Shown here in pieces: positions 4,223 through 5,523 of a DNA stretch of 5,523 nt. Each line of letters begins with the position of its first letter. The stretch's first letter is position 1. The position numbers were made by a program, and so were the translations under genes. Below the pieces are notes generated by a model. It was given only the letters and a program-made list of their open reading frames with translations, did no database searches and was not told where the DNA came from. Where the stretch lies: IMG/VR virus record IMGVR_UViG_2695420565_000012; one strand, 5' to 3'. This stretch comes from a virus (taxonomy: Duplodnaviria; Heunggongvirae; Uroviricota; Caudoviricetes).

Positions 4223-4872
4223 GCCGCCATCTCCCTGACCAGTTTTTCCGCCTGCTGGCGAACCTGCGCCAGAAACGCCTCACCACATGCCTCAAGTTCA
4301 TCGCGCCCGATGTAGCTGATTGCCGCTCCCTTCCAGGTCTTGTCGAAAACAGCAATAGCACCAGCGAAGAAAGCACCTGTTGGCACCTGCTTTTCGTCTT
4401 TCGGGATAAACCAGGCTGGCAGTTCAAAACCAATACGCCCGCGAATAAAAGCAATATGATCTGCATCTTCCGGCCACCACACTTCGCTGGTGGCCGCTTT
4501 GATCAGGAAAACATAGCGCCCGCCCTTATCACGCATGGCACTGGCATGTTTCATGATGTAACGCATGCCGGTGATGTATTGCCCCTCATGCTGACTGGCG
4601 CGGCTGTATGGGGGATTACCAAAGGCAGCACCTTTAAGCTCCGCAAGACGTTCTGACCAGTCATGCGCCAGCGCGTTGTCTTCCGCCGTGTAATACGCGG
4701 CACATTTGGCGTTATCACCGTCAGTGAACAGATCCAGAACAAACGGACCAAACAAGGTGTTAATTCCCCAGAAAATGTTGTCCGGCGTGCGCCACTGATC
4801 GCCCACTTCCTTCAGTTCATGGGCTGGTTTGTTCCGCAGTTCTACCAGCGCCTGGCAATATTTATTACTCAT
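4219..4872 (-). CDS. Phage Dam-type DNA N6-adenine methyltransferase
   Basis: Contains FGNPPYSR, the (D/N)PPY catalytic motif of N6-adenine methyltransferases; overall resembles the phage N-6-adenine-methyltransferase family. Start taken at ATG 4872..4870 (MSNKYCQALVELRN...) rather than the GTG at 4917 from the ORF track, because the ATG overlaps the stop of the upstream micro-ORF (TAATG) and follows a GGGGG run. Stop TGA at 4221..4219. Confidence 0.85.
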   Translation of the reverse strand: MSNKYCQALVELRNKPAHELKEVGDQWRTPDNIFWGINTLFGPFVLDLFTDGDNAKCAAYYTAEDNALAHDWSERLAELKGAAFGNPPYSRASQHEGQYITGMRYIMKHASAMRDKGGRYVFLIKAATSEVWWPEDADHIAFIRGRIGFELPAWFIPKDEKQVPTGAFFAGAIAVFDKTWKGAAISYIGRDELEACGEAFLAQVRQQAEKLVREMAA

Positions 4873-4964
4873 TAAGCCCCCACGTAAAAAGCATCCGCAA
4901 TGTCTCCGGAAGTACACCCCGGATGGGCTTCAATGAATTTCTGAACTTCATTCAAAAGACTCAT
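4872..4964 (-). CDS. Possible 30-aa micro-ORF translationally coupled between the upstream ORF and Dam
   Basis: ATG 4964..4962 lies 2 nt after the upstream TGA stop (TGATCATGA). It reads MSLLNEVQKFIEAHPGCTSGDIADAFYVGA, and its TAA stop overlaps the Dam ATG (TAATG). Not in the ORF track (too short). No recognisable family. Confidence 0.3.
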   Translation of the reverse strand: MSLLNEVQKFIEAHPGCTSGDIADAFYVGA

Positions 4965-4966
4965 GA

Positions 4967-5467
4967 TCACCCCCTGAATCCTTCCGGGATCTGGCTGTAG
5001 TCCACGTTGTCGTAACTGGCTTTGAAGTACGGGTCCTCGCGTCTGGCTGCAGATACCGCAGGAACTTCCCAGGATTCTTCGAAATGACGATCCGGACCAA
5101 AGAACGTCGACGCCTGCTTCACGAACTGGGTACCGGTATTTCCAGAGACACGCACCCAGGCGGCATAGCGTTTCACACCGTCGAGCATGGTTTCGGGTGT
5201 CACACCTTCCCTGATTCGGGCTTTCCAGGCTTTAAAAGCGGCGGATTTTGAATTACCACCAGCACGTTTGGGATATTCCTGCCAGGCCTGTTCAAATTCC
5301 GGTGAATATTCCTGTCTGGCAGAACGCGCTGGTGCAGACGCGTCAGCGGATGCGCCAATAGTGTTTTTAGTCTCCGTTGTAATCTCTGTAGTAATCTCTG
5401 TAGTAATCTCTGTATTTGAGGTGTACTGACAATAGCGGACACTACCATTTGTTCTTTTTTTAAGCAG
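4967..5467 (-). CDS. Phage replication-associated protein (conserved phage C-terminal domain, Phg_2220_C-like motif) with N-terminal (TEIT)n repeats; start codon undetermined, possibly frameshifted
   Basis: The frame is open from the stop TAG (5470..5468) to TGA (4969..4967). It reads ...NTEITTEITTEITTETKNTIGASADASAPARSARQEYSPEFEQAWQEYPKRAGGNSKSAAFKAWKARIREGVTPETMLDGVKRYAAWVRVSGNTGTQFVKQASTFFGPDRHFEESWEV... The F-x-x-(F/A)-W-x-x-Y-P-K-R...A-x-K-A-W...F-x-x-x-x-W pattern matches the conserved C-terminal domain of phage replication proteins as I recall it. No ATG/GTG/TTG occurs in this frame upstream of the GTG at 5203, which is the ORF-track start. Confidence 0.5.
   Translation of the reverse strand: MLKKRTNGSVRYCQYTSNTEITTEITTEITTETKNTIGASADASAPARSARQEYSPEFEQAWQEYPKRAGGNSKSAAFKAWKARIREGVTPETMLDGVKRYAAWVRVSGNTGTQFVKQASTFFGPDRHFEESWEVPAVSAARREDPYFKASYDNVDYSQIPEGFRG
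5379..5414. repeat. Perfect 12-bp tandem repeat x3 (gtaatctctgta), preceded by a degenerate copy from about 5371
   Basis: Read directly: 5379-5390, 5391-5402 and 5403-5414 are identical, and 5371-5378 (tctccgtt) is a partial related unit. In the minus-strand frame continuous with the downstream conserved domain it encodes TEIT-TEIT-TEIT. Confidence 0.9.
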
Positions 5468-5523
5468 CTATCTGATGATATTTTTCCCTGAAGGCTGCCG
5501 GGGAGATATTCCCCAGACGAGAG
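5460..5523 (-). CDS. Possible 3' end of an upstream gene entering from the right window edge
   Basis: One minus-strand frame is open from the edge and reads ...SRLGNISPAAFREKYHQIAA before TAA at 5462..5460. A second frame is also open from the edge, so the assignment is uncertain; only about 20 codons are visible. Confidence 0.25.
   Translation of the reverse strand, partial: SRLGNISPAAFREKYHQIAA

Follow-up and report, generated by a model that had tools for sequence, protein, structure and literature searches.

Genomic context of the repeat locus

The stretch of DNA analysed here (5,523 nucleotides, hereafter the window) carries, close to its right-hand end on the minus strand, the 3' remnant of a phage replication initiator gene (4967..5416; codons 183-331, with the TGA stop at 4969-4967), which encodes a linker, a helical C-terminal domain and an ...IPEGFRG tail. 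The first 182 codons of the gene are missing and their place is taken by the terminal 107 bp of IS600, an insertion sequence of the IS3 family (5417..5523, minus strand), which contributes its right inverted repeat and the 3' end of its transposase gene and runs off the window edge. The inverted repeat, ...GGTAGTGTCCGCTATTGTCAGTACACCTCA, ends at 5417, the transposase ORF finishes in ...NISPAAFREKYHQIAA with a stop codon at 5462-5460, and the inverted repeat (...TACACCTCA) and transposase 3' end together abut unrelated DNA at 5417. Window positions 5415-5523 (109 nt) are 99% identical to annotated IS600, copies of which occur in 2,886 of 5,426 complete E. coli genomes, and comparison with a full annotated copy, whose left end (IRL) reads TGAGGTAGCC... 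and whose right end reads ...GTACACCTCA, places the last base of the element at window position 5417.

An uninterrupted form of the gene is present in E. coli E2, at 191984-192979 of NZ_CP104509, where its 331-aa product (WP_032240285.1; PHROG 270) is annotated as an 'LvrA C-terminal domain-related protein'; window positions 4960-5418 are 100% identical to this gene at the DNA level. The initiator gene is likewise uninterrupted in two prophage contigs from IMG/VR, L004 and L005, which match the window at 100% identity over 3,449 bp. The exact junction between IS600 and the repeat described below was absent from the genome, viral and metagenome collections, the complete E. coli genomes and the phage records that we searched. 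The sequence probably comes from an IS600-rich strain of Shigella or E. coli. One other contig, L124 (IMGVR_UViG_2695420456_000024), shows at its last 13 bases the 5' part of the same initiator gene, of the window's type, fused to the left end of IS600 (...GATACGCCGAA joined to TGAGGTAGCCTGA), at a point 10 bp upstream of the window junction in intact-gene coordinates. This may be the partner of the window junction, with a small deletion, or it may reflect an independent second IS600 insertion.

On its 3' side, the initiator gene is followed by a truncated PerC-family ORF of 30 codons (4872..4964, minus strand), its usual neighbour, which overlaps the initiator stop (TGATCATG). In E. coli E2 the annotation of this stretch is a partial CDS, incomplete at its C-terminus; other genomes list it as a PerC family regulator, and a full-length yfdN-like gene occupies the site of this remnant in other prophages.

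The reading frame of the initiator remnant is preceded by a TAG stop at 5470-5468 and contains no ATG, GTG or TTG until a GTG at 5203. A spurious 82-codon ORF on the same strand (5200-5448) has its ATG within the IS600 end and translates the repeat, out of the initiator frame, as (QRLL)n. This ORF is almost certainly a chimeric artefact of the junction that a gene caller might nonetheless annotate, and ORFs called in the window upstream of 5203 are to be regarded as artefacts of the IS600 insertion.

A tandem 12-bp repeat in the interdomain linker of a replication initiator

A TRF scan of the whole window returned a single array, at 5371-5414 (period 12, 3.7 copies, 93% matches, score 74), and plus-strand positions 5379-5414 within it consist of three copies of gtaatctctgta, all perfect. 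Read in gene orientation on the minus strand, the array extends over 5366..5414 as NTEITTEITTEITTETKN, in which three perfect 12-bp units (ACAGAGATTACW) are followed by a degenerate one. Units 1 (5413-5402) and 2 (5401-5390), both ACAGAGATTACT, and unit 3 (5389-5378; ACAGAGATTACA) each encode TEIT, and unit 4 (5377-5366; ACGGAGACTAAA) encodes TETK. Three contiguous perfect 12-mers lie far beyond what chance would produce, and the array is real. By-eye inspection for a DnaA box, an IHF site or a promoter as the source of the 12-mer gave no convincing match.

The initial annotation had described an in-frame, TEIT-coding 12-bp tandem repeat upstream of the motif EFEQAWQEYPKR...KAWKARI, and in these respects it was accurate, as the translation runs TEIT TEIT TEIT TETK and the motif lies downstream of the array in the same minus-strand frame. 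It had also placed the repeat at the N-terminus of the protein, and this has to be revised. In the intact 331-aa homologue the array corresponds to residues ~184-199, in the linker that connects an HTH-like N-terminal region to the conserved C-terminal domain; it seems N-terminal in the window because IS600 took the 5' 60% of the gene out of it, and positions 5417-5523 on the 5' side of the array are IS600. The last base of the gene before IS600 is 2 bp from the start of the TRF array in intact-gene coordinates. An AlphaFold model of the window fragment has low overall confidence (mean pLDDT 54); in it, pLDDT stays below 50 over residues 1-34, which contain the repeat and are predicted to be disordered, and helices occupy residues 39-106.

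Assignment of the gene to replication, also proposed at the outset, is upheld by the intact homologue, which matches PHROG 270 'replication initiation protein' from end to end (E=2e-77). The window fragment itself matches PHROG 26426, PHROG 270 and PHROG 1701 'DnaD-like helicase loader', and phage records name homologues replication protein O, replication protein or primosomal protein I. Neither the fragment nor the intact proteins gave a significant match in Pfam or NCBIfam, and a PDB sequence search gave a chance match only.

Copy number varies and the array marks a joint between initiator modules

Homologous genes fall into three N-terminal types that share one C-terminal domain: type A, which is that of the window (start MSRYAPTPEV...), type B, which is that of SfV and cdtI (start MSMELMVKAMK...), and type C, which is O-like and occurs in Stx phages (start MRPSDLLLDF...). 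We counted perfect TEIT units in 80 type-A genes from IMG/VR whose N-terminal parts are at least 97% identical and found one unit at 1 locus, two at 66, three at 11 and four at 1, the remaining gene of the 80 being cut by IS600. Type B genes have another 12-mer at the same position (GAACCAGTCAAA, encoding EPVK) in 1-4 copies, and type C genes have 3-5 imperfect units. As the unit is 12 bp long, slippage alters the copy number and keeps the frame, and the spread of alleles in the type-A sequences is consistent with replication slippage. The expectation that copy number would differ among relatives is therefore borne out, with 1-4 perfect units across the 80 type-A genes. That alleles with one to four perfect units all persist may mean that copy number is unimportant or that many of these prophages are defective. 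We also considered a phase-variable simple-sequence contingency locus and rejected it, given that all observed alleles are in frame and that the gene encodes an initiator, not a surface or restriction function.

The N-terminal parts of types A and C have no BLASTP similarity to one another. Type-C N-terminal domains occur in combination with at least four C-terminal domains that are unrelated to one another, including a lambda-O-like one, and the array is kept in all type-C N-terminal relatives down to 56% identity. In megablast searches, the homology of the window to Stx-phage genes of type C (annotated 'replication protein O') starts at the first 12-mer (query base 110; window 5414, L001 2501). 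Because this homology begins exactly at the first 12-mer, the array can be recognised as a mosaic joint at which different N-terminal modules are attached to the same C-terminal module, and it thereby marks the place where N-terminal and C-terminal initiator modules swap. Types A and C also have in common a near-perfect 14-bp palindrome, GCTGACGCGTCTGC, which in the window lies at 5334..5347, 19 bp downstream of the array in gene orientation (repeat search: I8 in L002, 3072-3085, and I7 in L001; coordinates converted as window = 8419 - L002).

The 'replication protein' group represented by SfV orf39 and cdtI orf46 resembles the window in its C-terminal domain (~85% identity to the window fragment) and in its neighbourhood of PerC-like, Dam methylase, LexA-like and RusA genes. 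By contrast, it has another N-terminal domain, iterons of a 21-bp GTGCAGGAGTTGCAC type and the EPVK-encoding 12-mer GAACCAGTCAAA.

The extreme C-terminus of these proteins occurs as alternative tails that seemingly track the downstream genes (L002 gene end; L001, L085, L250 and P0052). An ...IP(E/A/T)GFRG tail is found in E2, SfV and cdtI, whose neighbourhoods are without a helicase or loader gene after the initiator, and the GFRG tail is likewise present in Kp4884-1 and P0052; where the tail is ...DYGSTNFNW or ...SDKFGKSSDKLTF, helicase-related genes come next. We take the GFRG tail to resemble the C-terminus of E. coli DnaT, and this would presumably account for the 'primosomal protein I' annotations.

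Longer, lineage-specific repeats adjoin the 12-mers

The linker-coding DNA on the 5' side of the array holds longer repeats. In type-C lineages and in Klebsiella Kp4884-1, BcepIL02, WCHABP12 and Aaphi23, 3-6 repeats with a 23-bp period end directly at the 12/13-mers (in Kp4884-1, five copies of TGGGGAAAGTCCATTCCGGGAAA stand just before the array), and these repeats are partly dyad-symmetric and lambda-iteron-like. Those of type A are few and weak: just upstream of the array, ACGTYAWAACGGAACA occurs twice in clear form and once in degenerate form, with a spacing of 23 bp. They lie beyond IS600 and outside the window, the IS600 joint falling exactly between this iteron side and the 12-mers. Lineage-specific repeats of 21-24 bp are also found in type B and in its relatives from Pseudomonas, Vibrio, Salmonella and Aggregatibacter, where a constant ...AGAACCAGTCACTCTTTTGAACCAGTCAA... 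block comes after them, and in type B this block includes an extra GAACCAGTCA copy 17 bp upstream of the next, in another reading frame. In SfV/cdtI-type genes (L016 2819-2968; L083 gene offsets 266-436; L255-L259), we noted 5-8 copies of a 21-24-bp dyad repeat, GGTAGTGCAGGAGTTGCACCA, which encode GSAGVAP-like peptides and differ in number between phages. The repeat at this position is a different one in Pseudomonas, Vibrio, Salmonella and Aggregatibacter, and the adjoining AGAACCAGTCACTCTTTTGAACCAGTCAA block is nearly invariant.

Judged by these sequence patterns, the 21-24-bp repeats behave as specificity-determining iterons and the 12/13-mers as their constant neighbour. The early suggestion of an iteron-like element embedded in coding sequence was thus right to the extent that the region resembles an origin inside a lambdoid initiator gene, but the 12-mers are probably not the iteron set, separate 21-24-bp repeats lying upstream of them and the 12-mers themselves standing where lambda has its AT-rich tract. 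A reading in which the 12-mers are double-stranded initiator-binding sites, that is, iterons of a second class, would account for the specific conservation of their sequence, which goes beyond AT-richness, and for the way in which the type of 12-mer tracks the initiator family within the same host, ACAGAGATTAC occurring with the O-like types A and C and GAACCAGTCAA with the SfV/cdtI type B; the extra type B copy in another frame would also suit it. We nevertheless consider this reading unlikely. The 12-mers are contiguous at a period of 12 bp and have no dyad symmetry, and it is the adjoining 21-24-bp repeats that resemble classical lambdoid iterons. Moreover, in types B and C the longer repeats change by lineage and the 12-mers stay constant, the opposite of what specificity sites should do, and types A and C have the same 12-mers despite N-terminal domains without BLASTP similarity.

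The array is a minimum of duplex stability in several lineages

We calculated nearest-neighbour duplex stability in 36-nt windows along each gene, with lambda O as a control, in which the known AT-rich tract was the least stable window of the gene (rank 0, z=3.0). The type-A array behaved in the same manner, being the least stable 36-nt window of its gene (z=3.0, rank 0 of 961), and the arrays of Kp4884-1 and Aaphi23 also have the lowest stability in their genes. The array ranks 1 in Pmp11, 2 in BcepIL02 and 8 in type C, and it is not the stability minimum in WCHABP12 (rank 39) or type B (rank 46). The GC content of the type-A array is 0.28 over 40 nt versus 0.52 for the whole gene; at 33% GC the array itself is moderately AT-rich, the lambda tract having 20% GC in 40 nt. 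In type A, an AT-rich, easily melted tract directly flanks the putative iterons.

Conservation of the array at the DNA level

As the type-A sequences are all at least 97% identical, the question of whether the array is conserved as DNA or as peptide was addressed with type C and more distant relatives. Type-C units follow the pattern WCA GAG ANT ACW, and relatives down to 56% protein identity, with different C-terminal domains, can be summarised as ACA GAG AnT ACw. The wobble positions in type C are fixed (ACA, GAG and never GAA, and a third-codon T), yet any of the four bases can stand at the second position of codon 3 (giving I, N, T or S) and codon 2 may be GAG, AAG, TAT or GAT. In pairwise comparisons, third-position identity within the array is 75-100%, often above the amino-acid identity of the array, and in the N-terminal domain the fraction of identical residues that also share their codon is 0.40-0.59.

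The 12-mer takes the form ACAGAGANTACW in E. coli and Klebsiella, CAGAGACTAC in Burkholderia and ACAAGAGAATAC in Acinetobacter, with three copies of ACAGAGATTACT in Klebsiella Kp4884-1, 2.5 copies of CAGAGACTACTA in Burkholderia BcepIL02 and two copies of ACAAGAGAATAC in Acinetobacter WCHABP12. In Aggregatibacter Aaphi23 and Pasteurella Pmp11 the unit is a 13-mer, ACACTAGATTACA, present as two perfect copies. Since this unit is 13 bp long, the identical copies fall in different frames and are translated as TLDY and TRLH, and one DNA repeat being read in two frames rules out a peptide-level explanation in Aaphi23 and Pmp11. Based on these comparisons, the array looks constrained as DNA rather than as peptide.

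These data bear directly on the notion of a neutral, slippage-prone, low-complexity disordered linker that has no function as DNA and whose copy number drifts. Such a linker would be expected to show perfect units in 1-4 copies among near-identical genes and to lie in a region of predicted disorder (pLDDT <50 for fragment residues 1-34), both of which are the case, and other homologues do have unrelated short repeats at this place (DPQVNSK x2, QDQEQDQE and EPVN x2, in a sample from a homologue search with the C-terminal domain that consists mostly of short partial proteins). It is, however, improbable that this is all the array amounts to, given that wobble bases are fixed though amino acids change between lineages at 56% identity, that the array outlasts exchange of both flanking domains, that the 13-mer recurs and is read in two frames, and that the array coincides with the stability minimum immediately behind the iterons in phages whose hosts belong to five genera. 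An identical copy number in all relatives with no initiator gene nearby, which would have favoured the neutral linker, was not what we found, as there are 1-4 copies within a gene for a PHROG 270 initiator. To call the repeat a variable linker is therefore descriptively true as regards its location and its 1-4 copies, but the DNA-level conservation contradicts a neutral one. Selection for the Thr-Glu-Ile-Thr peptide, as a tunable spacer or as a modification or interaction motif between the initiator domains, is very improbable indeed: although the unit is in frame in phages of E. coli, Klebsiella, Burkholderia and Acinetobacter and a T/S-E-x-T pattern recurs, residue 3 is I, N, T or S and residue 2 is E, K, Y or D while synonymous sites are fixed, Glu is always encoded by GAG and the first Thr always by ACA, neither of which protein-level selection needs, and the DNA repeat of Aaphi23 and Pmp11 encodes two unrelated peptides.

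A candidate replication origin within the initiator gene

In lambda and the Stx phages, the origin lies in the middle of gene O and combines iterons with an AT-rich tract (PMC7466680), and the unwinding element of RK2 consists of four 13-mers that Rep binds as single-stranded DNA in a sequence- and strand-specific manner, all four of them being required (PMC4081077). Similar to ori-lambda, with its four iterons and AT-rich tract in O, and to the six-iteron Stx origins, the element described here is located in linker-coding DNA of an initiator gene, which in the intact homologue separates the DNA-binding N-terminal domain from the C-terminal domain, and repeats of ~20-23 bp are followed by the least stable DNA of the gene. 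The region also shares with lambda the presence of mosaic joints between phages, the lambda record having misc_recomb marks in the AT-rich tract. It differs from lambda in that the lambda tract is non-repetitive and far more AT-rich, whereas here there are tandem, sequence-conserved 12/13-mers. In addition, the type-A protein has no significant pairwise similarity to lambda O, and no P-like or helicase-loader gene follows the type-A initiator.

The 13-mer unwinding elements (DUEs) of oriC and of the TrfA-bound RK2 oriV offer a further parallel, with 2-5 direct repeats of 12-13 nt beside initiator-binding repeats, which in the present case are candidates, at a local minimum of duplex stability and with a conserved repeat sequence. 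The array likewise consists of conserved direct repeats of ~13 nt in a putative unwinding region. The oriC and RK2 elements are non-coding, whereas the array is translated and its role in unwinding is proposed by analogy, and RK2 requires all four of its 13-mers, whereas the array is polymorphic with 1-4 copies. We also compared the 3' flank of the array with ori-lambda, to which it has a collinear likeness (GGACACAAAAGACACTATT; TGGCGAATCCTCTGAC); 51 and 75 of 200 codon-shuffled controls reached the same local score, and for this reason DNA likeness to ori-lambda was dropped as evidence. In the literature that we searched, there was no report of binding, unwinding, replication or origin activity for this initiator family and no mention of the motif, and matches to the motif or peptide were unrelated primer sequences.

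Iterons that adjoin a repeated, easily melted and sequence-specific block are most simply read as a design of the lambda/RK2 kind that runs in frame across linker-coding DNA. We therefore think it probable, though by no means assured, that the initiator gene contains a lambda-style origin whose unwinding-element-like repeat block is the 12-mer array at 5366..5414, and that IS600 has inactivated this origin in the present prophage. In intact relatives, the gene encodes a winged-helix origin-binding domain at the N-terminus, then a linker predicted to be disordered and a C-terminal domain, and its linker-coding DNA presents 2-6 iterons at ~23-bp spacing followed by 1-4 perfect 12-mers and one degenerate unit. 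The initiator would bind the iterons, whereupon the duplex would open at the adjoining 12-mers, the least stable DNA of the gene, and the opened strands might be held sequence-specifically as single strands, by analogy with Rep on the 13-mers of RK2. The encoded TEIT peptide would then be a tolerated by-product. In the window, IS600 has entered precisely at the border of iteron side and 12-mers and has taken the 5' 60% of the gene away. Because the promoter, the N-terminal domain and the putative iterons are split from the array and the C-terminal domain, both the initiator and the origin of this prophage are very likely dead, and the array in the window is a relic.

A broader and more tentative possibility is that O-like initiator genes in phages of Gamma- and Betaproteobacteria contain a two-tier origin, in which lineage-specific 21-24-bp iterons are paired with a family-constant block of 12/13-mers, of the ACAGAGATTAC or GAACCAGTCAA type, that serves as a recognised site of unwinding or helicase entry and whose copy number, set by slippage, tunes firing. 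If this were true, a conserved origin element would so far have been read only as a peptide linker. A lambda-type origin inside an initiator gene is known; what would be new is an AT-rich part in the form of a conserved tandem 12/13-mer block. Taken at the level of sequence, our analysis suggests that a coding repeat easily taken for low complexity is a cis-acting part of an origin, conserved as DNA in phages of at least six host genera. If confirmed, the block would provide a simple sequence signature with which to find origins in prophages that have O-like or DnaD-like initiators, and the natural alleles of one to four copies would be available for studying the contribution of unwinding-element repeats to initiation.
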